Assembly (NCBI GenBank): GCA_963713825.1
Contig: CAVQNG010000003.1
Location: 1,728,001-1,792,000, forward strand
Source of the DNA: an uncultured Acidobacteriota bacterium
Lineage (GTDB): Bacteria; Acidobacteriota; Thermoanaerobaculia; Multivoradales; JAHEKO01
Direction of reading: 5' to 3'
DNA: 64,000 nucleotides
Of the stretch, positions 28,098 through 45,830 are shown piece after piece (position 1 is the stretch's first letter; every line of letters starts with the position of its first letter). Under the pieces are notes generated by a model, which saw nothing but the letters and a program-made list of their open reading frames with translations, did no database searches and was not told where the DNA came from. Position numbers and translations under genes: made by a program.

Positions 28098-28676
28098 ATG
28101 ATGATGCCAGACTCTGGTTTGTGGGCCCTTGTCGGGATTCCCGTCATGATCTTCTTCGCGCGGATCATGGACGTCACCCTTGGAACGATGCGGATCATCC
28201 TCGTTTCCAAGGGACAGCGAAGCATCGCACCGTTCGTAGGTTTCTTCGAGATTCTGGTTTGGTTGGTGGCGATCGGGCAGGTCGTCCAGAACCTGGACCG
28301 GCCGCTCAACTACTTCGCCTACGCCGGTGGGTATGCTGCAGGGACCTGGCTGGGCTTGGCTTTGGATGAGAAGCTTGCTCTGGGACTCCTCGCCGTGCGG
28401 ATTATCACGCGAAAAGACGCGCAGGAGCTCATCGAGAACCTCAAGGAGAGTCAGTTCGGTGTCACGAGCGTGGCGGCGCGGGGATTGACCGGGCGGGTTC
28501 GCTTGATCTTTACCGTGGTGCGGAGGCGTGAGCTGAAACAGGTGATGGCTGTCATCCGGGCCCACAACCCGCAGGCTTTTGTCTCGGTCTCCGATGTGCG
28601 CGTGGCGACCGAGGGGTATTTCTCACCAACCAGCTCGACCTACCCACGTCTACTAGACTCGCTGCGGAAGAAGTAG
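28098..28676 (+). CDS. DUF2179/UPF0316-type membrane protein with C-terminal PII-like domain
   Basis: IFFARIMDVTLGTMR, GFFEILVW, YAGGYAAG, FGVT...G..G and I...NP.AF..V.DVR. Confidence 0.88.
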   Translation: MMMPDSGLWALVGIPVMIFFARIMDVTLGTMRIILVSKGQRSIAPFVGFFEILVWLVAIGQVVQNLDRPLNYFAYAGGYAAGTWLGLALDEKLALGLLAVRIITRKDAQELIENLKESQFGVTSVAARGLTGRVRLIFTVVRRRELKQVMAVIRAHNPQAFVSVSDVRVATEGYFSPTSSTYPRLLDSLRKK

Positions 28677-28718
28677 CGCCTCCTGTCGGACGAAGAGCGC
28701 GGCAATCGCGCCCTGTGC

Positions 28719-30950
28719 TCAGACGAGCTTGCCGGCGAACTCTCCAGCGTTACGAACGAAGACGGTGGTGTTCAGGCCCTCTGTCAGCTGTTCCATTCGC
28801 TCCGCGTATGCGGCCTCACCACCAACCGCGGGATCCTGAAGGCCGAGGAAGACCAAGTCGGCACCGGCACTGCAGCGGCGGATGATATCGGCAATCGATT
28901 CGTTCGGCGGCTTCATGAGGATCTCTGTGTCCGCATGAATGCGAACCTCTTGCAGCAGGGACTGCAACCCCTCCTGCTGGAGCTTCATCTCCTCTTCACT
29001 CCTCGAAATCGAGCGAATCACGATTCTCGCGTCGCTCCACTCCAGGTTCAGGCTGAGCAGGTAGGCGAGCATCAACATCATGTCCCCGTTATTCTCCAGG
29101 CCACCCCACCACAAGTCGATGCGCTTTTCCTGCCCTGGTTCGTGGGCCCAGTTGAGCCGCGCTATCAGAGTGCTCTTGCCGACTTTCGACAAACCCCGCG
29201 TGATGCGCAGCCAGGCCTCCAGCCGGCCTGGTTTCTGGGGCCAGCCCACGAGGACGGTGTTCGATTGCAGCCCGGCGATGCCATTGGCCTGTACAGCATC
29301 GATAACGCCGTGCTCGAAGTCATGGACGACATTCACCTCGCTGAATGCGACAAGCGCATTGCTGTCGAGTGCCCGGTCCATCTCGTCGTGCCACTGCTCG
29401 ACGTCGAAGTCCTCCTTGGTCAGGTCGCCGACCACCAACTGACTCGCGGTGACGATGCCACGGCCCTGGTTGAACCAGTTGGCAAGGCGTACGAGCCCGA
29501 TTCTCTTGTCGGGATCGCCGACGAACACGAGGATGTGCGGGCGCCAGTTGCGAGGATCTCGCCCATGCGACCGCAACTTCAGCAATGCAACTCGGGCGAT
29601 CGACATCCACACGCCAGCCCTCGCGTCGCCCCAACGTCGCTGCAGGGAGCGCCGCCGCAAGTACAGGTACAGCGCAGACTCGAGGCCGATCGCGATCACG
29701 CAGGCGACAGGGCTGATCAGAAACATCACGATAATAGCGCTCGCTGATCCGAGCAGAGAGGCGGCCCACGGAACCTTGATGGTCGGACGGTAGGACGGGT
29801 CGCCGGAGATCTTCTCTGCGGCGGCGCTCAAGTTGATGGTCACATAGAGAGTCAGAAAGAGAATGGTGACGAACTGCGCGACGGCGTTCAGTCCCCCGAG
29901 GGCGACCGCGATGAGCGCGATTGCACCGCTGATCCAAGTAGCGATGGTCGGCTGACCGCTCCTCGACAGGCGTGCCAGGAATCGCGGGGCCAAGCCGTCC
30001 TTGGCCAGCGCCTGCAGCACTCGAGGCCCTCCTAGGGCACTGCCGAAAGCCGACGACAGGATGGCTCCCAGCATTCCAGGAAAGACGAGCCAGACACCGA
30101 GAAAAGCCACAGCAGTCCAGGCGCCGACTCCCGGAACCGCCAGTTGCTCCGGACTCAGTCCGACTGTCACCGCTAGCAGTATCGGTACCAGCAGGTAGAC
30201 CAGTGTACCGGTCAGAACTGCCAGCAAGGTGCCGGCAGGGATCGAGCGTCGCGGGTTCTTCAGATCACCGCTCAATCCGATACCAGCCGTGAAGCCCGTT
30301 ACGGCTGGGAAGAAGACCGCGAAGACGTACCAGAATCCACCGCCGGCGCTGCGATAGGAGGGGGTGAGTGACGGAGCGTGAAAACCGTGAGCCAGGACGC
30401 CGGCCGTCAGGGCAATGAGAGAAGCGCCAACGGCGATCATGATCGGTATCTGGAGGCGCAGTGCCAGCCCCGCACTCTTCCCGGCCACGGCGGTGATGAC
30501 CACCACCGTCAGGGCAGCGATCAGTTGAACCAGCCTCGGGGACCCACCGTCCATTTGTGCTGGCAGTAGGGCGACGATGGCCTCGGCCAGACCAAAGGCG
30601 TAGAAAGTGATGCTCAGCGTGCGGCAGAGATAGAGAGGAATGCCGATAGCGCCACCCAGCTCGAGACCGAGACTGTGGGCCACCATGTAGTACTCCCCAC
30701 CGACCCCAACCCGCATGTTGGTGGCCAGGGCCGAGGCGCTCAGGGCCGTGATGAAGGTAACCGAGCTGGCGAGGAGCACGATCAGGACGGTCAGGGGCAG
30801 ACCCACGTTGCCCACGACCCAGCCGAAGCGCAGGTACATGATGAGGCCGAGAATCGTCAGGACACTCGGAGTGAAGACACCGAGAAAAGTGCCGAACTTC
30901 TCAGCTGGTGGATGCTCTGTGGCGGGGCCGCTCAGCTCGTCGCTGTCCAT
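28719..30950 (-). CDS. Prokaryotic cation-chloride cotransporter (CCC/SLC12 family)
   Basis: Motifs KFGTFLGVFTP, LGLIMYLRFGWVVG, GGEYYM...LG...GGAIG, FAVFFPAVTG..AG..LSGDLK.P..SIP.GT, RNWRPHILV and IDLWWGG. Confidence 0.92.
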   Translation of the reverse strand: MDSDELSGPATEHPPAEKFGTFLGVFTPSVLTILGLIMYLRFGWVVGNVGLPLTVLIVLLASSVTFITALSASALATNMRVGVGGEYYMVAHSLGLELGGAIGIPLYLCRTLSITFYAFGLAEAIVALLPAQMDGGSPRLVQLIAALTVVVITAVAGKSAGLALRLQIPIMIAVGASLIALTAGVLAHGFHAPSLTPSYRSAGGGFWYVFAVFFPAVTGFTAGIGLSGDLKNPRRSIPAGTLLAVLTGTLVYLLVPILLAVTVGLSPEQLAVPGVGAWTAVAFLGVWLVFPGMLGAILSSAFGSALGGPRVLQALAKDGLAPRFLARLSRSGQPTIATWISGAIALIAVALGGLNAVAQFVTILFLTLYVTINLSAAAEKISGDPSYRPTIKVPWAASLLGSASAIIVMFLISPVACVIAIGLESALYLYLRRRSLQRRWGDARAGVWMSIARVALLKLRSHGRDPRNWRPHILVFVGDPDKRIGLVRLANWFNQGRGIVTASQLVVGDLTKEDFDVEQWHDEMDRALDSNALVAFSEVNVVHDFEHGVIDAVQANGIAGLQSNTVLVGWPQKPGRLEAWLRITRGLSKVGKSTLIARLNWAHEPGQEKRIDLWWGGLENNGDMMLMLAYLLSLNLEWSDARIVIRSISRSEEEMKLQQEGLQSLLQEVRIHADTEILMKPPNESIADIIRRCSAGADLVFLGLQDPAVGGEAAYAERMEQLTEGLNTTVFVRNAGEFAGKLV

Positions 30951-30966
30951 GGATGAGGTCCCTACT

Positions 30967-33183
30967 CTACCTGCTGCTGATGAGGATGACCGGACAGTTG
31001 GTGGCGTTGATCAGTTGCCGTGTCATCGCACCGAAGACCCTGCGTCGAGAGCTCTGGCGCTGAATCCCCAGAACCAATAGACCGCAATCCGAAGACTCGT
31101 TCGTGAGAGCGCCGATCACATCGTCGCTTTCGAGAACCTGGACTTCGGCTCCTCGTGAGACCTCGTCACTGGCCAATGCAGCGACCTCGCGCCGGGCTTT
31201 CTGCTTCGCAGCTTCGGGGGTTCCCTCAGCCAGGACCCTGAGATATACGACCTCTCGATCTCCGTCGCGGCACAGGCTGCCCAGCAAGCGGGCGCGAAGC
31301 TTGCTCTGGTCGCGACGCCCGCCGACTGGGACCAGGACCCGTCGAGCGTCAGACAACTTCCACCCTTCAGGAGCGCGAAGGATCACGACATCGGATCCGA
31401 CGGCGCTGATGAAGTCCTCGAGACGAGATTCGACGCTCTCGGCCGTGACGTTTCCCAACCCGAGGAGCAGGCTCTCGCAACGGTGAAGGCGTGCCACTCG
31501 CCGTATCTCCGCCCAGGGATCCGGCGCGATGGTGGTCAACCATTCGGGATTGGCTCCGGCCGACAGGGAAAGCGACAGAGACTGATTCAAAATGGCTTCG
31601 ACATCGAGCAACTGCTGCGCAAGATCACCTCGGTGCCAGTCGCCAGGTGGCTGGACGACCGAGAGAAGCAGCACGCGCCCCGACTTCTGAGGTGCCAGAG
31701 CGTTCGCAACTTCAACCAGGCCTGCAGCGCTGCCAGGCTTTGCGATGGGTACCAGGACCAGCGGTGAGCGGCCGCGAAGTCGGACGAGATCCGGCTCCAT
31801 ACCCTCTTGGGATGCGTCCACCACGCGGGCTCGTCTGGCGAAGAGAAAGAAGTAGAGAATGAAACCGAGGCCCAACCAGACCATCACGACCCAACCTGCT
31901 TCGGGTACCGCCAATCCCTGAAACGCCGCGAGAGCGAGGCAGGCGCAACCTCCCAGGATCGGCACGAGGGGAAACCAGGGAACTCGGAAAGACGTTGCCG
32001 AAACTCCGCCACGGGTCTGAGCCAGGATATTGGTGCCATGAGCGATGGCGAAGGACAGGAGAAAGACCAGGCTGGCTGCGGCTCCAGCGGTGGCCACGTC
32101 CGGAACGAGGAGAAGGACTGCCAGGACCACAGCGACCGTTGCCACGATTGCCGTCATCGGTGTGCCGCGAGTCGAGTGGATGAAGCCGATGCTCTCGGGC
32201 AGGCTTCGATCTCGAGCCATGGTCAACGCCACCCGTGAGGCGGCGAGGAGGTTGGCGTGGAGGGCGGACAGCATGGAGAGCACCGCAGCGACGATGACCA
32301 GCCAGAATCCGAAGGGGCCGAGAAAATTTCTTGCGGCCTGTGCCACCACCGTAGCGGGATTCTGCTGGCTCATCTCCAAGATCGAGCCGCCTGCGTCCAC
32401 TCCGACAGTCGTGATGACGAAAAGCAGGGGAAGGTAGGTGGCCAGGGCAATCGCGAGCGACAGGATCATTGCTCTTGGAATCGTCTTGCGGGCATCTCGA
32501 ACCTCGCCGCCGACGGCGGCGATCAGATCGAAGCCTTGCAGGGCGATGAAGGTGAAGCCCATGGCCTGAAACAGCCCCAGGGAGCCGCCGGGGAAGAAGG
32601 GCCTCAGATTCGTTACCGCCGCGTCGGGAGATCGCTGAGCCAGCGCCCACAGGCCTCCCGCGATCAAGACGACGAAGACCAGAATCTTGCCCACGGTGGC
32701 CCACTGTCGGCCTCCTGGGCTACTCCGCACCAGTCCGACGCCGTAGAAGAGGATCGCGCCAGTCGCTAGAACGACCAGGACTACCCGGTGGCTCACCCAT
32801 TCGAAGCTTCTACCGAAGCTGGCTTGCAAGATGGTGTCGACAGCAGTGGCAGCGTAGGCAGCGAAACCCAACGCGTAGAGGACTGCGGCGACGATCGACG
32901 CCATCCAGACCACCCAACCCACAAGAAAGGCCGCCTCGCCCTCGAGCACCTTCTTGGCGAAAGAGTAGGTGCCTCCCGATTCGGGAAAGGCTGACGACAT
33001 TTCGGCGAAGCTCAGCACCGTGAGGAACGCGATCAGGCCATTCAGGGCGAAGGCCAGCATTGCGCTGGGGCCGGTGGCTGAAAAAGCCACCCCTGCCAGA
33101 GCCAGGATTCCTCCCCCGACGATGGCACCCACACCGATACCGGTGGCTCCCCAGAAGCCGATGGATCTTTGGTCTTCCGACAC
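30967..33183 (-). CDS. APC-family amino acid permease fused to two USP-like domains
   Basis: GVGAIVGGGI, AEMSSAFPESGG.Y, GFDLIAAVGGEV and SR....MARD. The cytoplasmic tail has VLVPIA and RVLVPVGG USP-type beta strands. Confidence 0.9.
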   Translation of the reverse strand: MSEDQRSIGFWGATGIGVGAIVGGGILALAGVAFSATGPSAMLAFALNGLIAFLTVLSFAEMSSAFPESGGTYSFAKKVLEGEAAFLVGWVVWMASIVAAVLYALGFAAYAATAVDTILQASFGRSFEWVSHRVVLVVLATGAILFYGVGLVRSSPGGRQWATVGKILVFVVLIAGGLWALAQRSPDAAVTNLRPFFPGGSLGLFQAMGFTFIALQGFDLIAAVGGEVRDARKTIPRAMILSLAIALATYLPLLFVITTVGVDAGGSILEMSQQNPATVVAQAARNFLGPFGFWLVIVAAVLSMLSALHANLLAASRVALTMARDRSLPESIGFIHSTRGTPMTAIVATVAVVLAVLLLVPDVATAGAAASLVFLLSFAIAHGTNILAQTRGGVSATSFRVPWFPLVPILGGCACLALAAFQGLAVPEAGWVVMVWLGLGFILYFFLFARRARVVDASQEGMEPDLVRLRGRSPLVLVPIAKPGSAAGLVEVANALAPQKSGRVLLLSVVQPPGDWHRGDLAQQLLDVEAILNQSLSLSLSAGANPEWLTTIAPDPWAEIRRVARLHRCESLLLGLGNVTAESVESRLEDFISAVGSDVVILRAPEGWKLSDARRVLVPVGGRRDQSKLRARLLGSLCRDGDREVVYLRVLAEGTPEAAKQKARREVAALASDEVSRGAEVQVLESDDVIGALTNESSDCGLLVLGIQRQSSRRRVFGAMTRQLINATNCPVILISSR

Positions 33184-33246
33184 GGATGTTTCCTTCGAGC
33201 AGTGCTGGGAAGGGTTCTCGGAAGCCTCCAGCCCGCCCGTAATTGG

Positions 33247-34191
33247 TTACCTCAAGTTTCGCATTCGTTTGGAGATGAGGGAAGGCACAGAAAGGACGGG
33301 ACAACTCGCCGTCTGAATGACCCGCTTCGCTACGCTGCCCAGGAATTCTCGGCCAGCAGCGAACGAACCGCGTCCACCCAGTGCGATGACATCGACTTCT
33401 TCCTGATTCGCTGCCCGCACGATCTCCGCGGCCGGTATTCCGTCGCGCAACAGCACACGAGCTGCGGCCCCATCCAGTCCGAATGTGTTCGAGAGTACAG
33501 CCAGCCTCTCCTTCAGAAGAGCCCGGCATTCTGCGACGTACTCTCCCCACAACTGACTCACTGCGATGTCCCTGTCCAAGCCCTTCGGCGTGTGGAGGAC
33601 CGAAAGCAGCAACATGGACACGTCGCGCTCATGGACGCGGAAGATCTCCTGAGCCGCGATGGCTGCAGCGTCGGCTTCGATGGAGAAATCAGTAGCGACG
33701 AGAATTCGGTGGGGAAGAGAGGCTCCCAGCCTCGCCTTCGGCCCGACGCTCAGAACGGGACAACTCGCCCCTTCGGCCACGCGCTCGGTGGTGCTGCCCA
33801 CCAAAAGGTCGTCGACGCCCCCCTCACCTCGAGTGCCCATCACGATGAGACCAGCCCGCTCCCAATCCGCCACTTTCAAGATCGACACCGAGGGTCGATC
33901 GTGAAGGAGGTGGCTCTGCACAGGCTGATCCGGGCTCCGAATGCTTTCTGCCAACTCTGCCAGGCGACGATCTGCGTCCCCGATTGAGACCTCGGCGAGC
34001 GGAGACAAGATGTCGTGTCGGCTAAGCAGAGGTAACGTCCGGGACACCGCGTGGACCAAATGGAGTTGCGCCCCATGGGTGCGAGCGATCGTCATGGCCC
34101 ACGAGAGGGCCACATCCGATGGATCCGAGAAGTCGGTAGCGGAGACGATCGACCGCAGGGTGCGGGCGGACGGTTGGTTCACAGATTCCAT
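33247..34191 (-). CDS. Universal stress protein, tandem USP domains
   Basis: Two repeats of ATDFS and G..G......GS...RV...A.CPVL.V. Confidence 0.92.
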   Translation of the reverse strand: MESVNQPSARTLRSIVSATDFSDPSDVALSWAMTIARTHGAQLHLVHAVSRTLPLLSRHDILSPLAEVSIGDADRRLAELAESIRSPDQPVQSHLLHDRPSVSILKVADWERAGLIVMGTRGEGGVDDLLVGSTTERVAEGASCPVLSVGPKARLGASLPHRILVATDFSIEADAAAIAAQEIFRVHERDVSMLLLSVLHTPKGLDRDIAVSQLWGEYVAECRALLKERLAVLSNTFGLDGAAARVLLRDGIPAAEIVRAANQEEVDVIALGGRGSFAAGREFLGSVAKRVIQTASCPVLSVPSLISKRMRNLR

Positions 34192-34221
34192 TCAGATTCC
34201 TTAGCGCCGACCGTCTCGGAT

Positions 34222-36597
34222 TCAGACCTTCTGCTCGTGGATCTCGGCAAGAGTCAACTCCTTGAGGTGTTCCACCAGAGACACCAAGTGACGAATCTGT
34301 ATCTCCCAGATCGCCCTGCCCTTTTCCGCGGTGGCGAGGGTCGGATCGCCAAAAACGCCTGACTTCGAGATGTGCTCCGTTCTAGCGTACCAGCCAACGC
34401 TGTACTTGGAGGTGAAGTCCAGATACTTGGAGGAGAACTTCGGCACGAGTGCCTTCGCCTTCTTCATGTCGACCAACTCGGGCCGAACGGCGAGCGATGT
34501 GCTGGTCTCGATCTCGCCGGCGTGGACGTCATTCTTGGTCTCGGTGATGGCATAGATGTCCGTATCGCTAGTCTCGCCGCTGTCGACGCAGGTGAAGATC
34601 CGGGTGTCGCGGTTGATCATCTGAGCCGCATGGTGCAGGGTCGCCGAGTTTCCGCCGTGGCCGTTGATGATGATCAACTTGGCAATGCCGTTGCGCGCCG
34701 CACTGACTCCGACATCGTAAACGAACCTGGCCAAAGACTCGTTCGACACGCTCAGCGTGCCTGGAAAGCTGTCGTGATGATACGAAACACCATATGGGAT
34801 CAACGGAAGGACCAGGGGCCGAGGTTCTTGACAGGCCTTGGCCACCTCGTGGGCGAGATAGTCGGCGTCGAACGCATCGGTGTCCACGGGCAGGTGAGGG
34901 CCGTGCTGCTCGATCGCTCCAACCGGGAGCAGCGCTATGTCCACGCCCCGCAGGATCTTCTTCGCTTCCGGCCACGAGAGCTGGGCCCATTCATATCGTC
35001 CGTCGGCTGGCCTAGCGTTCTTGAGGCGTGGTCCCGAAGCGGGGTTTGGACCCGGCTTGGCGAGTAGGTTCTTGGCATTCAGGGCTGGATCGCCCAGCAG
35101 ATCGAATGGCACCCACTGTTTGCCATGATGCCGAAGAGACCCTTCGGCGTGCGACAGGAGAATCTCGTACAGGCGCCTCCGAATAGGCAAGGGCACCTCA
35201 TCGATCGGCGAGCGGTCCCTGTGGAAGCGCAGCATCAGCGGCTCGCGGCGGCGAGCGGCGCGGACATTGCCGATTCGGGGCTCGGAGATCAGCTGCTTTT
35301 CATGGAGTAGGGCCCCCATGTGCTCGACAGCAGCTCGTTCTTGGTGCACTCCCTTGTCGACCAAGCTTCTCAGGATTCCCTCCACCTGATCGGCTCGGTA
35401 GCCTGCCAGCGATGGGTTCAGATCGCAGGCCAGCAGCATCCCGGCGATCCGGCGGCACTTCTCGCACTTGCCGCAGGGGAGCATCTTGCCATCCACCTCA
35501 TGGGCCGCATGGCAGGAGACCTGCAGCTCGAGCAAGGATGGGTAGCGCTCGGCCAGGGTCTTCTGGATGAGGAGCTCCGACATGGGCCTCAGAGCGGAAA
35601 GCTGCCGGACTCCCCAGTGCTTTTTCGCGTAGTAGCGGCTCAGAGCATGGTCGAAGTAGCGGCTCTGATCATAGAGGCCATCGAAGTGCGGAACTCCCCT
35701 ATGGGAGGCCTTGACAGTGGTGTCGTATTCGTCGCCGATCAGCAGGTGACCGATTCCCCGCTTGCGGAGCAATGGAAGTGCTCCGAAAAGGAACACAGCG
35801 ACGGTCCACAGACGAATCGGATACTCGTCCGATCGCAGACGTTGAAAGTCGGGGCGTACGAGGGACAAATGCCGCAGCATCCAGTTGAAGATCCGGTCCG
35901 AGTTGGTCCAGACCCGGGAGGTGTTTGGCACTGTCCGCCTGAACTCGCGGAAAGCGTTGATGGCGGTGAACCAGTGACGGCCCGACTCGTTGATGTAGAT
36001 CGGATGCACGTCGCACTCCAGCTCACGGAGCAGGCCAAAGGTAAGGAGGCTGTCCTTGCCGCCGCTGGAGAGAACCGAGTACAGGTCCGAGTCGCCCTGC
36101 CAGCCAGTGAAGGTTCCGGCGACTGCGGGCTCGAAGAGGACCCGAGCGTTTACGTAGTTGTCTCGTCGCTCGAGGGGCAGGCCAGCAAACTCGGGCGTCA
36201 AGAAGGCGTTGGGCTGTTGGATCTTCTTGACGTAGATCTCGCGTGCGGTATTGGCGAGCATCTCCTGGACGAATCGTCGATCCGTAGCATCGAAGTGGCC
36301 ATCAAACACGATCTCCTTGCAGAACAGACCGTAGTTCAGAGCCACCTGAACCGCGATCATGCTCGCCAGGTTCGAGCTGGCGGGATCCTCCGGGTCGAAG
36401 ACCTCCTCTTCGTAGCGGTACGTAAGCCTCTCTTCGTAGGTGTTCCCGTCTCTGGATACGACGAATGGTGCGATGAGCTGATTCGGCTTCGTGATGACCG
36501 GACCAACGGTCAGCTTGTCGATAACCTGGAGAACCGAAAGGGGATCCTCTTTCCCGATCGCTCGGCCTTGCTGGAGGTGGGCTTCGGTGGCGGACAT
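34222..36597 (-). CDS. Fusion of a MurL-like PP-loop (adenylating) domain and a creatininase-family amidohydrolase
   Basis: The N-terminal ~510 aa carry SGGKDS at ~aa 178, LRPMSEL and SCH...PCGKCEKC. The C-terminal ~260 aa carry PVGAIEQHGPHLP.DTD, FPGT, NGHGGN and HAGEIETS. SD AAGGAGAG. Confidence 0.82.
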   Translation of the reverse strand: MSATEAHLQQGRAIGKEDPLSVLQVIDKLTVGPVITKPNQLIAPFVVSRDGNTYEERLTYRYEEEVFDPEDPASSNLASMIAVQVALNYGLFCKEIVFDGHFDATDRRFVQEMLANTAREIYVKKIQQPNAFLTPEFAGLPLERRDNYVNARVLFEPAVAGTFTGWQGDSDLYSVLSSGGKDSLLTFGLLRELECDVHPIYINESGRHWFTAINAFREFRRTVPNTSRVWTNSDRIFNWMLRHLSLVRPDFQRLRSDEYPIRLWTVAVFLFGALPLLRKRGIGHLLIGDEYDTTVKASHRGVPHFDGLYDQSRYFDHALSRYYAKKHWGVRQLSALRPMSELLIQKTLAERYPSLLELQVSCHAAHEVDGKMLPCGKCEKCRRIAGMLLACDLNPSLAGYRADQVEGILRSLVDKGVHQERAAVEHMGALLHEKQLISEPRIGNVRAARRREPLMLRFHRDRSPIDEVPLPIRRRLYEILLSHAEGSLRHHGKQWVPFDLLGDPALNAKNLLAKPGPNPASGPRLKNARPADGRYEWAQLSWPEAKKILRGVDIALLPVGAIEQHGPHLPVDTDAFDADYLAHEVAKACQEPRPLVLPLIPYGVSYHHDSFPGTLSVSNESLARFVYDVGVSAARNGIAKLIIINGHGGNSATLHHAAQMINRDTRIFTCVDSGETSDTDIYAITETKNDVHAGEIETSTSLAVRPELVDMKKAKALVPKFSSKYLDFTSKYSVGWYARTEHISKSGVFGDPTLATAEKGRAIWEIQIRHLVSLVEHLKELTLAEIHEQKV

Positions 36598-37682
36598 GAA
36601 CCTCTCTCCTTGGAGTTCAAGAAGGGCTGAAGCGCGTCAATGACGGCTCCACACCCTTCGCGTAAGGGATAGCAGGCAGGTAGTCCCGTTCTCTGTTGGG
36701 TACTCTTCTTTGCAGACGATGCTGCGTGTGTCGCTAGATGCTCGTCGTTCAGTGTGATCGCAACCACTGGCTTTCCAGAGATCAACTCGATGGCCTCGAT
36801 CTGGGTTTCCAGCGGGTGAATTGGATAGCCCGGAAAGCCGTCGTACTCGGCTCGGGCCGGAGCATGCTGCAACACGACGACGTCTGGTCGCCCGGCTGCC
36901 AGAAGCTCGAAGCCTCCAGGATAGGCGGGGTTCATCAAGCTGCCCTGTCCTTCCAACAGGATCACATCTGGGCGCTCTTCGTTCCATGCCGTCCATACGG
37001 CATGCTCGATTTCACCGGTTACAAAGTCGTTGACCAGGGAGTCCAGGATGACCCCGTATCGAGCCCCTTGCATCCAGGCGGTCTGTCCGGTACCCACTAG
37101 TTCTGTAGAGCGGCCTCGGATTTCCAGTCCGTCTCGCAACATCCAGGCGGTTGTACGTTTTCCGACAGCCGAGTCCGTTCCCAGCACAGCGACCTTCAGG
37201 CACGCGACTTCCTCGATCTTGCCGCTGAAGAAGTGCATATTCTTGATTGGAGGGGGCTTTCGCACATCACGAATCTTCACACCACGCTCAGCTGCGGCAG
37301 CCGAAATCTCGGCATCGTCGCTCAGGAATTCGTGCAACCCCGAGTCGATATTCAACCCTGCATGGATGGCATCAAGAACGTTCCGTCGTCCAGATTCTGG
37401 CAAGCGACCTCCGTCTGGTGCCAACCCGACGACGAAGTGGGTGGCAGGAGCGCCCTGCAACCGAGCTTTCAAGAGCGCCTCGGAAAGATCCTCAGTAATC
37501 CGGATTCCGTTCCAGTTGTGGTCGAGAACCTCTCCTGCATCGCGCCCGGCCAGGCCGGAATCAACAACGGCCAGGATTCGATATCGCGCAGAGCGGCGAA
37601 CCAGTCCGTGGGCCGTTTTCCCGTAGGTAGTGCCAAATGCACCTTCGCAATACACGATTGCATTGCCTTCTGGATGTTTCAT
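36510..37682 (-). CDS. DUF1611 protein (DgcN-like D-glutamate N-acetyltransferase family)
   Basis: GKTAHGLVR, G.APDGGRLP, GLHEFL.DD, P-loop-like GTDSAVGKRTT, GTGQT and EGQGSL..PAY. Confidence 0.88.
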   Translation of the reverse strand: MKHPEGNAIVYCEGAFGTTYGKTAHGLVRRSARYRILAVVDSGLAGRDAGEVLDHNWNGIRITEDLSEALLKARLQGAPATHFVVGLAPDGGRLPESGRRNVLDAIHAGLNIDSGLHEFLSDDAEISAAAAERGVKIRDVRKPPPIKNMHFFSGKIEEVACLKVAVLGTDSAVGKRTTAWMLRDGLEIRGRSTELVGTGQTAWMQGARYGVILDSLVNDFVTGEIEHAVWTAWNEERPDVILLEGQGSLMNPAYPGGFELLAAGRPDVVVLQHAPARAEYDGFPGYPIHPLETQIEAIELISGKPVVAITLNDEHLATHAASSAKKSTQQRTGLPACYPLREGCGAVIDALQPFLNSKERGSCPPPKPTSSKAERSGKRIPFRFSRLSTS

Positions 37683-38755
37683 TTCTTCCTCCCTGTGAGG
37701 ATTGCTACGTATCGGTCGCCTGAGAACGGGTCTTCAGAATGTCTCTCGAGTAGAGAGATCAGGCCAGCGGTCGCTGCCGGCAGTACATTCAGACTCTCCT
37801 CCTCCGCCAGCTTGCGAGTCGTCTGGAGCATCGCTTTGTCACTGACATTGGATGCCCAGCCACCGCTCGATCGGATCGCGTCGAGGGCGAGATCGCCGTC
37901 CAGAGAGTTCCAATTGATCAGGGGCTCGTTGACAGCGGTTTCGCGAATCTTCTCCGGACTTAGTGGCTCACAGTGGAGCAGATTCTTGCGGTAGGAGCGA
38001 ACAATGGGATTCTTGCCGTAGGTGGAGCCCGCCGCCATGCGAGGAATGCGCGACGTCTTACCCCTTCTGTAGAGGCTGATGAAACCCTTGTGGATTCCCG
38101 CCAGGGTCGTTCCGTTCGAAACTGGAACTGCTACCACTGCGGGTGCGTCCCTCAGCTCGTCGTAGATCTCGTAGGCGATCTGTCCGTAGGCGCTGAGCTG
38201 AATCGCGGTGTTGGCGCCGCCCGGATTGGCATCGTAGAACTCGTGTTGGTCCGCCAGCTGTTGCGAGGCTTCGACCGCACGTTCGTAGTCGCCCGGCACC
38301 CGGCGAATCGTGGCCCTCTCGGATTCGATCTCCTGGATCCGTCGTGTTTGGTACCCGGCTGGAATCAGAATCACCGCTTCGAGCCCGGCCAGTCGAGCTG
38401 CCTCGGCGACGGCTACTCCGTAGTTACCGCAGGTGGCCACGGTGACGGTGTCGAAACCACGGCGCAGCGCATCCATGACCTGAGCGAAGGCGATGCGGTC
38501 CTTCTGGGTGCCGCTGGGGTTCGCGCCTTCGAACTTCAGGAACAGCTGGCGCAGGCCGGTCTCCCGCTCGAGGTGGCGGCCGCGGGTCAACGCTGTATCA
38601 CCGACCTCCGACTCGAAGATGTCCTCGTACCATTCGAGACGCTCCTCGATTGAGAGCTCCGGATCGGCGGCGCTCTCCATGGCCTTGCGGATACGAGGTC
38701 CTTGTAGCGGTTGGCCCACCGCGCCGTCCAGCAGGTTGAAACTCTGCTCGCTCAT
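37679..38755 (-). CDS. PLP-dependent enzyme, threonine-synthase-like (fold type II), atypical subfamily
   Basis: LFLKFEGANPSGTQKDR (PLP lysine), ATCGNYG, PVSNGTT and VAILTG. Its stop overlaps the DUF1611 start (ATGA coupling). Confidence 0.87.
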   Translation of the reverse strand: MSEQSFNLLDGAVGQPLQGPRIRKAMESAADPELSIEERLEWYEDIFESEVGDTALTRGRHLERETGLRQLFLKFEGANPSGTQKDRIAFAQVMDALRRGFDTVTVATCGNYGVAVAEAARLAGLEAVILIPAGYQTRRIQEIESERATIRRVPGDYERAVEASQQLADQHEFYDANPGGANTAIQLSAYGQIAYEIYDELRDAPAVVAVPVSNGTTLAGIHKGFISLYRRGKTSRIPRMAAGSTYGKNPIVRSYRKNLLHCEPLSPEKIRETAVNEPLINWNSLDGDLALDAIRSSGGWASNVSDKAMLQTTRKLAEEESLNVLPAATAGLISLLERHSEDPFSGDRYVAILTGRKK

Positions 38756-38780
38756 CGACCTGATCTCGGGGGTAGGATGC

Positions 38781-39320
38781 CTAGCGTTTTGGGCCGCCCC
38801 GCGGGCGGTGAATCCGTCTGTCGACAATGACCGAAGGGTTGTCGTACTCGAAGTCGTCATCCGGCAGATCGTCATCGATCTCGTCGAATCCGAGATCCTC
38901 GCTCACGTCGGGCCCTGTCGATATCCAATCAACTCGAGCCGGTCGCTCCTGTCTCAAGGTCGATTTAAGCTCCTCAAAGGACTCGCAGAGCTGGTCCCAG
39001 GAGTCACCGATGCGCTCGACGACATCCTCTCGGGAGGCGTTGCCCTGCGCAAAGCAGCTCCTGATCTCCATGCGAAGCATGAGGGCTTCGCGGTAGATCT
39101 CCTCGGCCTCCACGGCGAGATTGGGGAGCTCGTTCGCATCGTCATAGGTGGAACGGGCTTCGAGCCCGGCCACTCGGGCCATGAAGCGCTTGAGCTCTCG
39201 GTCGAGATCCTTGAGGTATCTCTTCCCGGATCTCGCGGCAGATCTCTCGCTGCTGTGGGCTCCGACAACCCATTCATCCTGCTGTCGATCACGGTGCCTG
39301 GGCGTTGCCTTCTTGCTCAT
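38781..39320 (-). CDS. Hypothetical protein, helical/coiled-coil with an acidic C-terminal region; first gene of the sigma54 operon
   Basis: 179-aa ORF with SD GGAGGAAGGA. It lies directly downstream of the sigma54 box and carries a DEIDDDLPDDDFEYD tract. Confidence 0.65.
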   Translation of the reverse strand: MSKKATPRHRDRQQDEWVVGAHSSERSAARSGKRYLKDLDRELKRFMARVAGLEARSTYDDANELPNLAVEAEEIYREALMLRMEIRSCFAQGNASREDVVERIGDSWDQLCESFEELKSTLRQERPARVDWISTGPDVSEDLGFDEIDDDLPDDDFEYDNPSVIVDRRIHRPRGGPKR

Positions 39321-39383
39321 GTTCCTTCCTCCAGTGGTTCGTCCTGTGCTCGAATTTGTGGAGCGTAGACGAGGAGTCCAAAG

Positions 39384-39398
39384 GCAAATTGGATGCCA
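39384..39398 (-). promoter_or_regulatory. Sigma54 (RpoN) -24/-12 promoter
   Basis: The minus strand reads TGGCA-TCCAAT-TTGC, with exact consensus spacing (TGGCA-N6-TTGC). It sits ~64 bp upstream of ATG 39320, next to a divergent bEBP gene. Confidence 0.8.
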
Positions 39399-39493
39399 AT
39401 TCCGCCCAGGCGCTCCAGAACCTGAAGAGAGTAGTCATTCTGCTGCGATTTCCAGTATTGGAGGATTTCGAATCAGGGGGGCGGCGGTATGTT

Positions 39494-39552
39494 TCGGAAT
39501 AAGAATACCGACAAGAAAAGAATTGATTTACCGATCGGAAATAGAATACAGT
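39494..39552. promoter_or_regulatory. Candidate paired upstream activator sequences for the bEBP
   Basis: TCGGAATAAGAATACCGA (39494-39511, imperfect palindrome) and TCGGAAATAGAATACAGT (39535-39552) are 41 bp apart. They lie ~100-150 bp upstream of the sigma54 box in an AT-rich stretch. Confidence 0.55.
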
Positions 39553-39573
39553 TTCAGTCGGGAGGACGACCCT

Positions 39574-41016
39574 ATGCTAATTCGCCTTCTTCTTCTCGTC
39601 GAAACGAGCGACCTGCGCGGTCGCCTCGCAGAGTCCTTGGCTGAGCTTGGAGCGCTGGTGTTCGTCGAGTCCGAACCCGACAGGCTCTGGGGTCGCCTCG
39701 GGGAAGATTCCTTCGATCTCGTGGTAGCCACCCGGTCGATGCTTCCTACCGATGTCGAAAGATCGATCGAAGAGATTCGCGAGCTGCCGTACCGGCCGGA
39801 GGTGATCGTCTTGGCGGATCTCGCCGAGGCGGAAGAGCGGACAGCCCTCCAGAAGGGCGGCGCTTTTGCCGTGATCGACAAGACGCTGTCGCCGGAGCCT
39901 CTGATCCAGACCCTCCGCACGGTTCTATTGCGTTTTCAAGAGCTCGGTGTCAGTCGATTGAGAGAGTCTCGTTCGCAGCGCTCGAGACTCGATGACTTCG
40001 CCTCCGAGAGCCCAGCCATGCGGCGACTCCTCGAGCTTGCTCGGCGTGTCTCCAATACCGACACATCGTTGTTGGTTCTCGGGGAAACGGGTGTCGGCAA
40101 GGAATGGTTGGCGCGGGCGATCCACTCGGAAGGTGCCCGCAGCGCTTTGCCCTTCATTGCGGTCAACTGCGCTGCAGTACCGGAGACCCTTTTGGAGAGC
40201 GAGCTTTTCGGGCACGAGAGGGGGGCCTTCACCGGCGCTGTCCGCGCCCGCCGAGGTTGCTTCGAGCTCGCTCATCGCGGCACCCTGTTCCTGGACGAGA
40301 TCGGTGACATTCCGGTCCATCTTCAGGCCAAGCTGCTACGGGCCCTTCAGGAGAGAGAGATCCAGCGCCTGGGTGCGGAGAGCTCGATGCGGGTGGACGT
40401 TCGGGTTATCGCGGCCACGAACCAGAATCTGGAACTGGCGATCGAAGATGGGCTGTTCCGGCCGGATCTCTTCTACCGGCTGAGCGTGGTGACCCTGACC
40501 ATACCTCCACTTCGAGAAAGACGAGAGGACATTGTGCCACTGATCGAGAACTACCTGGAGGATTTCCGTCAGCAGATGGGTCGCTTGGACATCGAGGGGA
40601 TCGAAGAGTCAGCGCTCGAAGCCATGTGCAACTACGAATGGCCGGGCAATGTCCGCGAGCTCATCAACGTCGTGGAGCGGGCCACGTTGCTGTGTGATGG
40701 AGAGGTGATCACGGACGAGCACCTTCCTGATGCCATAGCCGGCGGTTTGCACCCCTACCTGCAGACGGAGGGTTCCGGCGATCCGTCCTCTGCCTTCGAG
40801 CCTCTTCTGGGCGGGGCCTTGGCGGCAGGCAGGAACCAACTGGTGGAGTCGTTCGAGCGAGAGTATCTCTCGAGGCTACTCGAACGGACTTCCGGCAACA
40901 TCGCGGAAACGGCTCGTACCGCAGGCATCGATCCACGCACCCTCTACAACAAGATGAAGGCCTACGATCTGCGCAAGGAAGACTTCCGAGCGTCGCCGCG
41001 TCGGCCTCGACAGTAG
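39574..41016 (+). CDS. Sigma54-dependent enhancer-binding activator (NtrC family) with degenerate receiver domain
   Basis: Motifs GETGVGKE, ESELFGHERGAFTGA, GTLFLDEIG, FRPDLFYRL and WPGNVREL, plus a Fis-type HTH. SD GGGAGG before ATG 39574. Confidence 0.93.
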   Translation: MLIRLLLLVETSDLRGRLAESLAELGALVFVESEPDRLWGRLGEDSFDLVVATRSMLPTDVERSIEEIRELPYRPEVIVLADLAEAEERTALQKGGAFAVIDKTLSPEPLIQTLRTVLLRFQELGVSRLRESRSQRSRLDDFASESPAMRRLLELARRVSNTDTSLLVLGETGVGKEWLARAIHSEGARSALPFIAVNCAAVPETLLESELFGHERGAFTGAVRARRGCFELAHRGTLFLDEIGDIPVHLQAKLLRALQEREIQRLGAESSMRVDVRVIAATNQNLELAIEDGLFRPDLFYRLSVVTLTIPPLRERREDIVPLIENYLEDFRQQMGRLDIEGIEESALEAMCNYEWPGNVRELINVVERATLLCDGEVITDEHLPDAIAGGLHPYLQTEGSGDPSSAFEPLLGGALAAGRNQLVESFEREYLSRLLERTSGNIAETARTAGIDPRTLYNKMKAYDLRKEDFRASPRRPRQ

Positions 41017-41031
41017 TCCGGTCTGCCCTTG

Positions 41032-42102
41032 CTACGGTTCGACGACGAGAACGCTCGACGCCAGATCTTCGGACACCCGATCCTCGAGGCCGACGGCCTC
41101 GGAGCGCAGCCGTAGCAACTGGGAAGGCTTGACTCCCTTGGGCAACTTGCCGAGATTGCAGACCGGCTCACCCGGACTGATCGCGGGTAGCGTCGTCATG
41201 CCGATGACGGCAGCATTGAAAGGGGCGGTCAGAAAGCTGCGCTCGCGTCCGAGCAGGGTCGTATTCGTCGCAATCGGGTCGTCCTTGTCGATGATGTCTC
41301 CTGGATGGACATGGAACCGAAGAAATCCGCCCAGCTCAGCGCGAATCCACTTCGACTTCTCGATGACGAGCTGATATTTGGGGCGTTCCAGGTCACCGTC
41401 GAGCATGTCGAGGCTGCGAAGAACGTTCTTGATTCCCCGCTCCGCGGATTCGACGATGGCGGGCTCGACCTTCCAGACCTCGCCGCCTTCCATGATGATG
41501 GTCGGGCAACCGGCTCGACAGGCAGCACGGCGAAAGGCACCCTTGGGGCCGATTCCGTTCATGATGATCTCCGATCCGAACGCCTCCGCGAGCCGTCGCA
41601 CCTCAGGGTCGCTCATATCGGCGCGCACATTTGGATAGTTCGTGCGACGAACGGCCGCGGTATGCAGGTCGATGCCATAGTCGCACCGCATTACGATCTC
41701 ATCGAAGATCGCGTGTGCCATCCGGCTGGCGAGACTTCCTGTCGAGGATCCAGGAAACGACCGGTTCAGGTCGCGCCGATCCGGCAGATAGCGGGAATGC
41801 CGTTCAAAGGCGGGGAGGTTGAGCACGGGCACGAGAATGACTGCACCACGTCGTAGCTGGAATTCTTCGTCCTTGATCAAGTGACGAACCGCTCCTGTTC
41901 CATTGATCTCGTCCCCGTGAAGAGCGGCCGTGACGAAAACGACCGGACCGTCCTCGGTTGCGCGGCGAATGTGAATTGGAATTTGTACCGTCATGCTGCT
42001 GTAGCTTTCGCCCACAGCGAGATAGACGTCGCGTGACTCACCCGCCGCAATGGCCATGCCGTTCCACTCGTCGATCGGCTTTCGTTGGCGAGGCTCGGTC
42101 AT
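41032..42102 (-). CDS. Succinylglutamate desuccinylase/aspartoacylase-family (M14-like) deacylase
   Basis: Motifs AALHGDEING, SRYLPDRRDLNRSFPG, GIDLHT and EGGE, with a C-terminal barrel-sandwich segment. Confidence 0.92.
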   Translation of the reverse strand: MTEPRQRKPIDEWNGMAIAAGESRDVYLAVGESYSSMTVQIPIHIRRATEDGPVVFVTAALHGDEINGTGAVRHLIKDEEFQLRRGAVILVPVLNLPAFERHSRYLPDRRDLNRSFPGSSTGSLASRMAHAIFDEIVMRCDYGIDLHTAAVRRTNYPNVRADMSDPEVRRLAEAFGSEIIMNGIGPKGAFRRAACRAGCPTIIMEGGEVWKVEPAIVESAERGIKNVLRSLDMLDGDLERPKYQLVIEKSKWIRAELGGFLRFHVHPGDIIDKDDPIATNTTLLGRERSFLTAPFNAAVIGMTTLPAISPGEPVCNLGKLPKGVKPSQLLRLRSEAVGLEDRVSEDLASSVLVVEP

Positions 42103-42109
42103 GGCTGTC

Positions 42110-43360
42110 TCAGCCCGCTACCGGTGTGTCTGAATCGTCAGGCGATGGGCTCGGGGTGGTCAGGACCTCATCGGCTACCGGCAGGTCGGGTAGTTCCTGG
42201 GTCTTGGGGCGTCGACTGCGGCGCACCTTGGCCGGAATCAGCCCCCGCATCAGGTCGAGCTTGCCGAAGCAGAGCAGCCGATCGCCAGCTTCCAGCAGCC
42301 GATGCGATCGCGGATTCGGAATGACGGTCGTGCCACGGTAGAGCGTCAGCACGTTGATGTCCCTATCGCGCAAACCCGACTCGTTGATCGCCTTACCGAC
42401 GTACTCCGAACCTTCTGGAATATGAATCTCGGTAACACCATAGCCCCGACTCACGGTCAGGCGCTGGCGCAGGTCGATCTCCGGAAAGTCGACTTGAGCG
42501 GCAATGTAGTCGATGATCGCCCCGGCCACATCGAGCTGTGTGGCCCCCTCGATGCCTTCCAGACCGGGCGAGGAATTCACTTCCATGATCTGAGGTCCAT
42601 CGCGGCCCTCGAGCATGTCCACGCCAGCAACTCGTAGCCCCATGATCTGGGCGGCTCTCACGGCGGTCTCACTGTAGGTCGGATCGAGAGTGAGGGGTTC
42701 GGTTCGACCGCCACGATGGACATTGCTGCGGAACTCCTGACCCTGTGCGACCCGGCGCATGGCGGCAACCACCTGGTCGCCCACAACAAAGGCCCGGATG
42801 TCCCGACCCTTGCTCTCGGCGACGAACTTCTGGATCAGCACGTTCTGCTTTTGGAGTTGGAGCAGCTCGATAATCGCTTCAGCCGAGCTGGCGGACTCGG
42901 CGAGCAGCACGCCGATGCCCTGCGTGCCTTCCAGCAGCTTGATGACGACCGGCGCCCCTCCCACTCTGTCGATTGCCGGCAATACATCTCTCTTGTCGCG
43001 AACGAAGGTCGTCTCCGGGATACCGATCTGATGTCGGCTCAGGATCTGCAAACTGCGGAGCTTGTCTCGAGAGTTGGTGATGCCCGCCGACGAGTTAGCG
43101 CAAAAGACATCCATCTGCTCGAACTGTCGCACCACTGCTGTTCCGAAGTAGGTGATGGACGCGCCGATTCGCGGCAGCACTGCATCATATTGAGACAGAT
43201 GCTTTTGCCGGAAAAAAAGGTCCGGAGCGCCTGCCCGCAAGTCAATCGCGAACTTCAAGGTGTCGAGGACCTTGATCTGGTGCCCTCGTTGCTCCGCCGC
43301 CTCGCGGAGTCGTCGTGTGCTGTAGCAGCGTGGGCTGCACGACAGGATTCCAAGTTTCAT
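42110..43360 (-). CDS. rimK: RimK-family ATP-grasp alpha-L-glutamate ligase with C-terminal TrkA-C (RCK_C) domain
   Basis: YSTRRL.EAA..RGH, PRIGAS.T, SRDKLRSLQIL, KLLEGTQGIGV, EFRSNVHRGG and EVNSSPGLEGIE. The C-terminal EIHIPEGSEYVGK.I....LR...INVL...RG...PNP.....LEAGDRL matches RCK_C. Confidence 0.93.
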   Translation of the reverse strand: MKLGILSCSPRCYSTRRLREAAEQRGHQIKVLDTLKFAIDLRAGAPDLFFRQKHLSQYDAVLPRIGASITYFGTAVVRQFEQMDVFCANSSAGITNSRDKLRSLQILSRHQIGIPETTFVRDKRDVLPAIDRVGGAPVVIKLLEGTQGIGVLLAESASSAEAIIELLQLQKQNVLIQKFVAESKGRDIRAFVVGDQVVAAMRRVAQGQEFRSNVHRGGRTEPLTLDPTYSETAVRAAQIMGLRVAGVDMLEGRDGPQIMEVNSSPGLEGIEGATQLDVAGAIIDYIAAQVDFPEIDLRQRLTVSRGYGVTEIHIPEGSEYVGKAINESGLRDRDINVLTLYRGTTVIPNPRSHRLLEAGDRLLCFGKLDLMRGLIPAKVRRSRRPKTQELPDLPVADEVLTTPSPSPDDSDTPVAG

Positions 43361-43383
43361 GGGTAGTCCATATCTTGAGAGAT

Positions 43384-43875
43384 TTAGCTGCGGTGCCGAC
43401 CCGCAAGCCTGGATTTCGACTTCTTTCGTTTCGGTTTGCCGCCGTAGTAGGAGTTCCCACCGTCGACGAGAAAGCGCCGCCGGAAGGCCTGGCGACCCAG
43501 CAACATGCGGAAGCCCATGGCATCTCGATTGGCAAGAGTCAGCTCGACCGGCCAGGTAGACCCGAGCAGCGTGATGTTGGTGACGATGACCGGCCGCAGC
43601 GTAGCTTTGCCACTCGAGCTGCGGACCGAGCGGAAGTCCAGGACCGCTGCCTCCGCCCGCACCTCCTGGACCGTGCTTCGCTGGATGGGATGAACCTTGA
43701 AACGCACCCAGTTGGCTCCCCTTCGGTCGCAGTACTGCAGATCGTAGGCATGTAGCGATGACGAGCGAGCGCCAGTGTCGACCTTCGCCTTGATCCTCTC
43801 GATTCCCATGTCAGGTAGCCGGACCCATTCACGCCAGCCGACGATCAGCCTGTCTGACCTTGCATCCTTCGCCAT
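43384..43875 (-). CDS. RimK-associated retropepsin-like protease (RimB-like)
   Basis: GWREWV.LPD, KAKVDTGARSSSLHA, VRSSSG...RPVI and LTL.NRD.MGFRMLLGR. It lies immediately upstream of rimK. Confidence 0.92.
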   Translation of the reverse strand: MAKDARSDRLIVGWREWVRLPDMGIERIKAKVDTGARSSSLHAYDLQYCDRRGANWVRFKVHPIQRSTVQEVRAEAAVLDFRSVRSSSGKATLRPVIVTNITLLGSTWPVELTLANRDAMGFRMLLGRQAFRRRFLVDGGNSYYGGKPKRKKSKSRLAGRHRS

Positions 43876-45822: not shown

Positions 45823-45830
45823 ACTTGTTC

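Follow-up and report, generated by a model that had tools for sequence, protein, structure and literature searches.

Some of the genes at the locus described here resemble those of characterised systems. In the RimABK system, RimK glutamylates ribosomal protein S6 and RimB is a peptidase. The catabolic DgcN-DgcA pair (named after the NCBIfam families NF041892 and NF042940) follows a logic of acylation, racemisation and deacylation. In Xanthomonas and some actinobacteria, MurD2 and MurL form an alternative D-glutamate route to peptidoglycan, and to our knowledge MurL is the only known ATP-driven one-way peptide epimerase. The portions of the MurL papers on which we draw describe it as an ATP-to-AMP, one-way L-to-D epimerase of the C-terminal residue, and give its discoverers' proposal that the alpha-carboxylate is adenylated (PMC5808125, PMC8788868). 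We compared these systems with a window of 64,000 nt (the whole stretch of DNA that was analysed; contig CAVQNG010000003.1 of assembly GCA_963713825.1, from an uncultured Acidobacteriota bacterium), in which the region under study spans positions 27966-43875. We put at roughly 0.55 the probability that this region consists of two units, namely a sigma-54 operon whose core is this lineage's version of a widespread and as yet undescribed cassette acting on an amino acid or dipeptide, and an optional module of RimB-, RimK- and AstE-like genes. A preliminary description of the same DNA had read both units as a single glutamate pathway under sigma-54 control; all of the genes that it listed are present in the open reading frame (ORF) map and in profile scans against Pfam, which covered the ORFs of 24-48 kb, and NCBIfam, on which the family assignments below are based.

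The core of the operon lies on the minus strand and consists of the genes for a ThrC-like pyridoxal phosphate (PLP) enzyme (37679-38755, or to 38875 with an alternative ATG), a DUF1611 protein (36510-37682) and a 791-aa fusion protein that we call FUS (34222-36597). The three genes were adjacent and in the same order in all ten loci examined from relatives. For a wider survey, the best 80 of 474 FUS matches in species genomes were combined with an independent set of 80 metagenome contigs (n=160). FUS was present in all 80 loci of either set. The genome loci contained DUF1611 in 71 cases, the PLP gene in 69 and, directly downstream, an epimerase gene in 65; among the metagenome loci, 65 had DUF1611, 54 the PLP gene and 66 the epimerase. 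Many contigs end inside the cassette and, consequently, these counts per 80 loci are lower bounds. The hosts belong to more than ten phyla (Acidobacteriota, Desulfobacterota, Ignavibacteria, Gemmatimonadota, Planctomycetota, Latescibacterota, Calditrichota, Zixibacteria and others) and are mostly known as metagenome-assembled genomes (MAGs) from sediment, together with the cultured delta proteobacterium NaphS2. The cassette proteins are about 55-65% identical between phyla. The cassette is accessory: of 301 genomes sampled from the phylum, 14 have it. Near-identical DNA was present in freshwater-sediment, salt-marsh and marine-sediment metagenomes. A published description of the cassette was not found in the literature searched, which did not extend to supplementary files.

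The usual fourth gene of the cassette encodes an MR_MLE (enolase-superfamily) protein that resembles dipeptide epimerases. Among NCBIfam models it matches the Thermotoga-type L-Ala-D/L-Glu epimerase best (241.7 bits against a cut-off of 500), and the solved structures nearest to it are those of the dipeptide epimerases 3jva, 1jpm/1tkk and 3rit. The pairing of DUF1611 with an enolase-superfamily racemase or epimerase in most cassette lineages is a likeness to DgcN-DgcA, but the cassette epimerases match dipeptide epimerases better than DgcA (147-170 bits, cut-off 400), and the cassette adds the PLP enzyme and FUS. The window itself contains no epimerase or other MR_MLE gene. In this genus (as seen in a second genome, G004) and in the genus of another genome, G024, a universal stress protein (USP) gene follows FUS in place of the epimerase gene. 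Three MR_MLE paralogues are encoded elsewhere in the genome, and the best of them is paired with a DUF1611 gene of its own. A conserved 449-aa neighbour, U449, was rejected as a cassette member when it proved to be an antisense shadow of the epimerase gene.

The cassette can also be smaller. Seven Desulfobacterales loci keep the PLP gene, FUS and a YitT gene without DUF1611 or the epimerase, and one such genome has no orthologous DUF1611 gene anywhere. Because both DUF1611 and the epimerase are missing from these loci, the PLP enzyme and FUS make up the minimal core. Three contigs of one Desulfobacterales MAG (L077, L080 and L081) carry three separate PLP-FUS-YitT loci, all of them without DUF1611 and epimerase.

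We examined the core enzymes one at a time. The PLP enzyme (PALP, 181.4 bits) is of fold-type II, and its nearest solved structures are short threonine synthases (E=1.3e-25). It scores above the cut-off of NF004996 (413.7 versus 266 bits) and below that of TIGR00260 (111-113 versus 167 bits). The PLP lysine is retained. The ThrC stretch NSVNP.R.EGQKT around Arg160, which has a role in phosphate binding, is replaced by PGGANTAIQLSAYGQIA. Alignments with orthologues begin at residues 25-69 of the long ORF, and the start at 38755 is preferred. The DUF1611 protein matches PF07755 (211.8 bits) and PF17396 (89.6 bits) and has 2obn, 2g0t and 7xrj as solved relatives; two further DUF1611 paralogues are encoded in the genome. 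Against the equivalog of DgcN, the D-Glu N-acetyltransferase (NF041892), it reaches 156.8 bits with a cut-off of 480. To judge from its sequence, it is a DgcN-like paralogue and not a DgcN orthologue.

FUS joins two parts of different origin. Residues 538-775 cover the full creatininase profile PF02633 (positions 1-238; 238.6 bits, cut-off 31.3), and this part matched 1q3k in a Foldseek search (E=4.9e-10) and a PDB entry by sequence (E=9e-17); FUS reaches the cut-off of neither the MftE nor the creatininase equivalog. Residues 1-532 had no Pfam match even at E<=10. An SGGKDS motif and a Cys/His cluster in this N-terminal part are invariant in 20 homologues. In an AlphaFold model (mean pLDDT 75.9), the N-terminal part resembled QatC (E=7e-5), QueC (E=5e-4) and Cap9 (E=1e-2, probability 1.00) by Foldseek, and more weakly YcfA and NcsA. 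The model suggests that FUS shares with QueC, QatC and Cap9 the PP-loop core and the fold of the Cys/His cluster, and it may share their ATP-dependent activation of carboxylates. It differs from them in falling outside Pfam membership at E<=10 and in its context, which is one of amino-acid enzymes and not of deazapurine or defence genes.

The N-terminal part of FUS is also related to MurL. In a language-model Atlas search, 27 of 30 matches fell in MurL_N/MurL_epimerase_C clusters. Against the MurL equivalog, whose cut-off is 700 bits, FUS reaches 14.9 bits (E=0.0069; 12.1 bits in the genome search). A profile of residues 1-530 was aligned by hhalign with one built from MurL-like ORFs (nine sub-threshold relatives from the 301-genome sample), and the two matched with 98.6% probability (E=1.4e-15, 366 columns); pairwise BLAST of FUS against MurL relatives was weak but collinear. 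The homology covers about residues 27-441, some 400 residues, and runs along both MurL domains. On the strength of the profile alignment, the fold and the sub-threshold MurL score, we regard FUS not as a MurL orthologue but as a remote relative within the MurL superfamily that has an amidohydrolase attached. The PP-loop/creatininase fusion of the preliminary description is present, and its PP-loop part can now be specified as MurL-homologous with a QueC-like fold. A search of five genomes that carry the cassette returned no member of the MurL family itself (NF041275). Of 8,000 candidates scored, at least 2,865 are related to the N-terminal part of FUS; most are proteins of 770-800 aa with a creatininase domain, and some, of 470-545 aa, are without one. 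The comparison with MurD2/MurL extends to the neighbourhood, since in a minority of cassette loci the ATP-dependent Glu ligase RimK adjoins FUS as MurD2 adjoins MurL. Unlike FUS, however, MurL has no creatininase domain, no Mur ligase domain was seen in the ORFs between 24 and 48 kb that the Pfam scan covered, and the cassette is accessory and stress-regulated rather than part of cell-wall housekeeping.

Glutamate had been proposed as the substrate common to all of these enzymes. The distance of the DUF1611 protein from DgcN and of FUS from MurL does not favour this proposal, and neither do the cassette epimerases of other lineages. In YkfB of B. subtilis, an L-Ala-D/L-Glu epimerase, Arg24 forms a salt bridge with the substrate carboxylate and Asp321/Asp323 hold the ammonium group of the dipeptide, according to the part of the YkfB study used here (bioRxiv 10.1101/2022.05.01.490185). 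In 77 aligned rows of cassette epimerases, some of which repeat loci, the position of Arg24 is occupied by Glu in 66, Gln in 6, Asp in 4 and Ala in 1, and never by Arg or Lys; the DgcA-like paralogue of the genome has Arg there. The acidic residue at this position of the cassette epimerase, where DgcN-DgcA-type units differ, argues against C-terminal Glu as the substrate. The Asp-x-Asp motif that binds the free amine of a dipeptide is kept in the cassette epimerase, as seen in one orthologue (L028), which suggests a dipeptide with a free amine and not an N-acyl acid. The substrate of the cassette is, from these residues and scores, probably not glutamate. What stands of the earlier proposal is the affinity of DUF1611 to DgcN and of FUS to MurL, although membership of either equivalog fails; since these affinities hold, acylation or ligation together with an ATP-driven stereo-inversion is a reasonable chemistry for the cassette.

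We next considered how the cassette is expressed in this organism. It is embedded in a minus-strand operon whose intergenic gaps range from -88 to +63 nt in the ORF map. The first gene encodes an acidic protein of 179 aa (38781-39320), and the core genes are followed by a tandem USP gene (33247-34191; Usp in two stretches, 161.5 bits), a gene for an APC permease that ends in a USP domain (30967-33183; AA_permease_2, AA_permease and Usp) and, as the last gene, one for an SLC12-type cation-chloride cotransporter (CCC; 28719-30950; AA_permease and the SLC12 C-terminal domain). A -24/-12 box of the sigma-54 type, TGGCATCCAATTTGCC, lies on the same strand at 39383-39398, 62 nt upstream of the ATG of the acidic ORF, and has one mismatch to the searched pattern TGGCAYNNNNNTTGCW. 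The divergent gene on the plus strand (39574-41016) encodes a sigma-54 enhancer-binding activator (bEBP; Sigma54_activat, 229.7 bits, AAA_lid_14 and HTH_8) with a GAFTGA motif, and rpoN is present in the genome (217.3 bits). The motif alone is not above chance in the window (5 matches versus a shuffle mean of 2.43, with 9 of 100 shuffles reaching 5). The box at 39383-39398 is supported because it lies between the operon and the divergent activator, because rpoN is present and because such boxes recur at orthologues: of 67 orthologous loci, 15 had a strong box ahead of the PLP gene in the sense direction, compared with 1 of 67 in the antisense control, and a box identical to the one at 39383-39398 occurs in locus L023 as well. 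A sigma-54 activator is encoded near the cassette at 18 of the 80 genome loci and at 10 of the 80 metagenome loci. The box was found where the preliminary description had placed it and, with an AAA+ activator carrying GAFTGA and rpoN also present, the locus has the predicted features of a sigma-54-dependent operon.

The receiver domain of the activator is degenerate, its Response_reg match (21.4 bits) falling below the cut-off of 30.2. The expected acceptor position reads ...DLVVATRS... when placed by reading and not by alignment. Within the receiver-like domain (39574-39950), the stretch ...FDLVVATRSMLP... stands where the phospho-acceptor Asp would be expected, and the residue there is seemingly Thr, again as placed by reading. 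A Ser/Thr kinase with PD40 repeats is encoded at 45777-48587. A scan for sigma-70 promoters and terminators was uninformative (8 terminator-like sites versus 10.0 expected). The gaps of 16-63 nt, a common strand and the presence of one sigma-54 box speak for a transcript that the cassette shares with the USP, APC and CCC genes. Two near-exact short contigs in an estuary RNA library (X20), one in FUS and the other in DUF1611, give a weak hint that the operon is transcribed; the library covers no more of the operon than these two stretches.

The genes that surround the core differ in how widely they are shared. The acidic protein was confined, in jackhmmer searches of the loci, to this genus and the genus of G024. 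Its three-helix bundle is flanked by a basic tail at the N-terminus and an acidic one at the C-terminus; in the predicted model the helices span residues 29-60, 66-92 and 98-124, their cores have mean pLDDT values of 91-97 per 10-residue block and the tails are disordered. No family matched it even at E<=10, and a fold search returned nothing at E<=0.001, only generic helical bundles. The closest solved relatives of the APC-USP permease are GkApcT, ApcT and SLC7 transporters (E=1.2e-25). The CCC protein has both domains of an SLC12 transporter (PF00324, 139.5 bits; PF03522, 54.4 bits), stays below the cut-off of TIGR00930 (399.9 versus 953 bits) and, by sequence comparison, appears closest to KCC2-4 among solved structures (E=1.6e-86). 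CCC adjoins the cassette in 3 of 10 relatives' loci, in varied arrangements, and does so in three genera of this family with about 40% identity and different gene orders; CCC-like matches of 26-32% identity in three metagenome loci are candidates only.

A membrane protein with DUF5698 and DUF2179 domains (UPF0316-type) is encoded on the plus strand at 27966-28676, convergent with the end of the operon. It matches PF18955 (82 bits) and PF10035 (45 bits) and exceeds the cut-off of NF003191 (223 versus 179 bits). Membrane proteins with a DUF2179 domain, of the YitT or DUF5698 type, adjoin the cassette at 23 of the 80 genome loci and 10 of the 80 metagenome loci (33/160), and the 5.4-Mb genome has only two DUF2179 genes. 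The convergent gene thus belongs with the cassette, as had been proposed, and its product is likely a transporter or sensor partner of it. Clustering of neighbours across 85 loci gave further recurrent genes, namely those for CorA (9 of 85), MgtE (6), Cpn60 (9), HSP20 (6), glycogen phosphorylase (10) and agmatinase (5). Since the positions and orientations of these recurrent neighbours differ between phyla, they support a general stress and ion context. The link to salt and stress transporters made in the preliminary description holds in this form, for cation transport and stress genes such as Mg2+ channels and chaperones; it does not hold as a general link with CCC, which is found mainly in this family.

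Taken together, these data lead us to propose the following model for the cassette, by analogy with the systems above. The PLP enzyme would make or consume an amino acid, which the DUF1611 protein would N-acylate or ligate. The MurL-like domain of FUS may then adenylate the alpha-carboxylate and invert the alpha-carbon, and the creatininase domain could hydrolyse an amide or cyclic intermediate and so liberate the product. The full set in most lineages also comprises a dipeptide epimerase and a membrane protein of the DUF2179 type. In this reading, this genus has lost the epimerase and gained the USP, APC-USP, CCC and acidic first genes, which wires the cassette into a stress and ion-homeostasis regulon. 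Several points weigh against this reading. The order of the steps is modelled on DgcN-DgcA and MurD2-MurL, and the scores of all core enzymes fall well short of the cut-offs for characterised families; the MurL-like comparison sequences are themselves below the MurL cut-off (the best has 299.7 versus 700 bits). The acylation step would not be universal, because the seven Desulfobacterales loci lack DUF1611. The neighbour counts come from related organisms, so that the loci are not independent. The argument from Arg24 is indirect, the window being without an epimerase, and the solved dipeptide epimerase 3rit, which presumably binds cationic dipeptides, keeps Arg at the aligned position. Finally, the estuary RNA contigs could be DNA carry-over.

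The cassette might instead serve catabolism or salvage. D-amino acids, or dipeptides that contain them, from sediment necromass would enter through the APC permease and the DUF2179 protein and be converted to L-forms by the acylate, racemise and deacylate logic, and the PLP enzyme would degrade them. The pairing of DUF1611 with an epimerase copies the catabolic DgcN-DgcA pair, the permease is of an amino-acid importer type, and the organism lives in freshwater to marine sediments. A second DUF1611-MR_MLE pair in the genome also has neighbours that are typical of D-peptide degradation. It is nonetheless unlikely that the cassette works in this direction. MurL, the only characterised relative of the N-terminal part of FUS, runs one way from L to D, and the racemase that salvage requires is absent from the window. 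The neighbours are chaperones, USPs and cation channels and not peptidases or peptide ABC importers, and regulation is by sigma-54 and stress-type activators. The second pair itself lies at C4:49875-52085 of the genome (G000; L106 6875-9085), where DUF1611 and MR_MLE genes stand beside those for an M20 peptidase, a beta-lactamase/amidohydrolase fusion and an arginine-deiminase-like protein. Because its epimerase has Arg at the YkfB Arg24 position, this pair looks like a DgcN-DgcA-type unit for the catabolism of D-Glu or D-peptides.

Another possibility is that the cassette, the block of USP, APC and CCC genes and the Rim unit are independent of each other and lie together without metabolic meaning in a rearrangement-prone stress island. 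Compared with window positions 29224-33224, contig L120 has the USP gene joined to the 3' end of the CCC gene (last ~170 codons), so that about 4.0 kb, comprising the APC-USP gene and most of CCC, are skipped. The two sides of this joint are 84% and 96.5% identical to the window at the nucleotide level, and the contig may represent a recombinant strain or an assembly chimera. Another metagenome contig, L119, is without most of the USP gene and without the whole Rim and hydrolase block, the Rim genes of G004 are elsewhere, and orthologous CCC is limited to this family. The compact, single-strand arrangement behind one sigma-54 box argues against such an assortment, and so do the recurrence of CCC beside the cassette in three genera with different gene orders and that of DUF2179 proteins across phyla. 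We therefore consider a chance grouping of these blocks very unlikely.

The preferred reading, a sigma-54 cassette operon with an optional companion, leaves the second unit to be described. Its genes are on the minus strand and are transcribed towards the 3' end of the activator gene: a RimB-like retropepsin-type peptidase (43384-43875), RimK with a C-terminal TrkA_C (RCK_C) domain (42110-43360) and, last, an AstE/AspA-family (M14-like) protein that resembles deacylases or carboxypeptidases (41032-42102). RimK (RimK, 197.7 bits; Rimk_N, 126.4; TrkA_C, 39.6) exceeds the cut-off of TIGR00768 (260.2 versus 143.4 bits) and is just below that of the S6-specific NF007764 (321.9 versus 331). The RimB-like peptidase matches PF05618 (118.5 bits) and remains below the cut-off of NF052261 (123.5 versus 200 bits). 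The AstE-like protein matches PF24827 (132.7 bits), and its best NCBIfam match is DoeB (88 bits, below the cut-off of 402). The unit thus resembles RimABK in having a RimK of the TIGR00768 family and an adjacent RimB-like peptidase in the same order, but it differs in the TrkA_C domain of RimK and in having an AstE-like gene as the third member instead of RimA. No RimA-type gene was found among the ORFs scanned, and the RimB and S6-ligase equivalogs are not reached. Ribosomal protein S6 of this genome (G000 C1:260886-261278; L118 1495-1887) ends in ...AAVSEEEN, with Asn and not Glu-Glu at its terminus.

We determined how often this unit accompanies the cassette. RimK or RimB genes (>=35% identity) were near it in 5 of 80 genome and 3 of 80 metagenome loci, that is 8 of 160 (~5%). 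RimK itself was near the cassette in 4 of 160 loci, compared with roughly 0.3 expected by chance, a rough estimate derived from the presence of RimK in 8 of 13 genomes, which makes RimK enriched about 13-fold. This suggests that the Rim unit is found beside the cassette more often than by chance. It is contiguous with the cassette in G467, L016, L054, L101, L077 and L122, from Acidobacteriota and Desulfobacterota; in G467 it lies downstream on the same strand as the cassette. Rim genes were nearby at 2 of 14 epimerase-less loci versus 6 of 131 others, numbers too small for a preference to be asserted. The epimerase-less locus of G467 (L200 9663-11636) has DUF3124, DUF4258 and a LysE-type translocator fragment between FUS and RimB, and CorA is divergent from the PLP gene. 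In G004 and L119, synteny with the window runs from the amidohydrolase to the activator and then resumes at about 45054, so that AstE, RimK, RimB and an alpha/beta hydrolase (41002-45053) are skipped. The Rim block of G004 (L013) is on contig C161, downstream of DNA homologous to window positions 59476-63998 and with different upstream flanks. No sigma-54 box was found upstream of rimB. From the distribution of these sequences, we conclude that the Rim unit is a self-contained glutamate-ligase/peptidase module, an optional companion of the cassette and a recent arrival at this site.

A RimB paralogue is found elsewhere in the genome (G000 C3:1640499-1644230; L117 4500-8234), in a run of genes for MscS, CorA, RimB and a soluble SLC12 C-terminal-domain protein. 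It is 80% identical to the RimB of the window, and the soluble protein is 87% identical to CCC residues 355-743. Because of this MscS-CorA-RimB run, the RimB-like peptidase is tied to ion-homeostasis genes a second time in the same genome.

The least likely of the explanations that we considered is the original one, in which both units form one pathway that builds or recycles an N-acyl amino acid or peptide containing D-Glu (RimK ligating, the MurL-like enzyme flipping and RimB and AstE releasing the residue) as an osmolyte or glutamate store tied to Cl-/cation flux: a RimK with a MurL-like enzyme would mirror MurD2 and MurL as the cited portions describe them (PMC5808125, PMC8788868), Rim units adjoin the cassette in at least six other loci of two phyla in varied arrangements and above the rough chance figure, and RimB recurs beside ion-homeostasis genes, but about 95% of cassette loci are without a nearby Rim gene, neither G004 nor L119 has the AstE-RimK-RimB block at this site, each unit has its own orientation and promoter, the DUF1611 protein and FUS are below the DgcN and MurL cut-offs, and the cassette epimerase has an acidic residue at the Arg24 position.

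Returning to the reading of a cassette operon with an optional Rim module, a more specific form of it can be outlined, although we hold it to be quite unlikely in all its parts. The cassette would make an amino acid or dipeptide that is locked by ATP in the D-configuration and is probably cationic or neutral. Through its resistance to normal metabolism, this product might act as a stress solute or organic counter-ion, under sigma-54 control and linked to chaperones, and be balanced with the flux of K+/Cl- (through CCC, in this genome) or Mg2+ (through CorA and MgtE, in others), while DUF2179 proteins would be dedicated to its transport or sensing. Where a Rim unit is linked to the cassette, a C-terminus to which RimK has added L-Glu would be capped as D-Glu by FUS, so that the tail is safe from RimB and AstE, following the logic of MurD2/MurL. 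More generally, the optional status of the Rim unit and the low probability of glutamate reduce the number of candidate substrates and partners. The sigma-54 promoter, the USPs, the permease and the K+/Cl--type cotransporter, together with a range from freshwater to marine sediments, point to salinity or ion stress as the condition of interest. Hundreds of sediment bacteria, most of them uncultured and spread over more than ten phyla, have the core cassette. The chemistry of FUS would define a new enzyme family and, probably, also a new small molecule of anaerobic sediment microbes.

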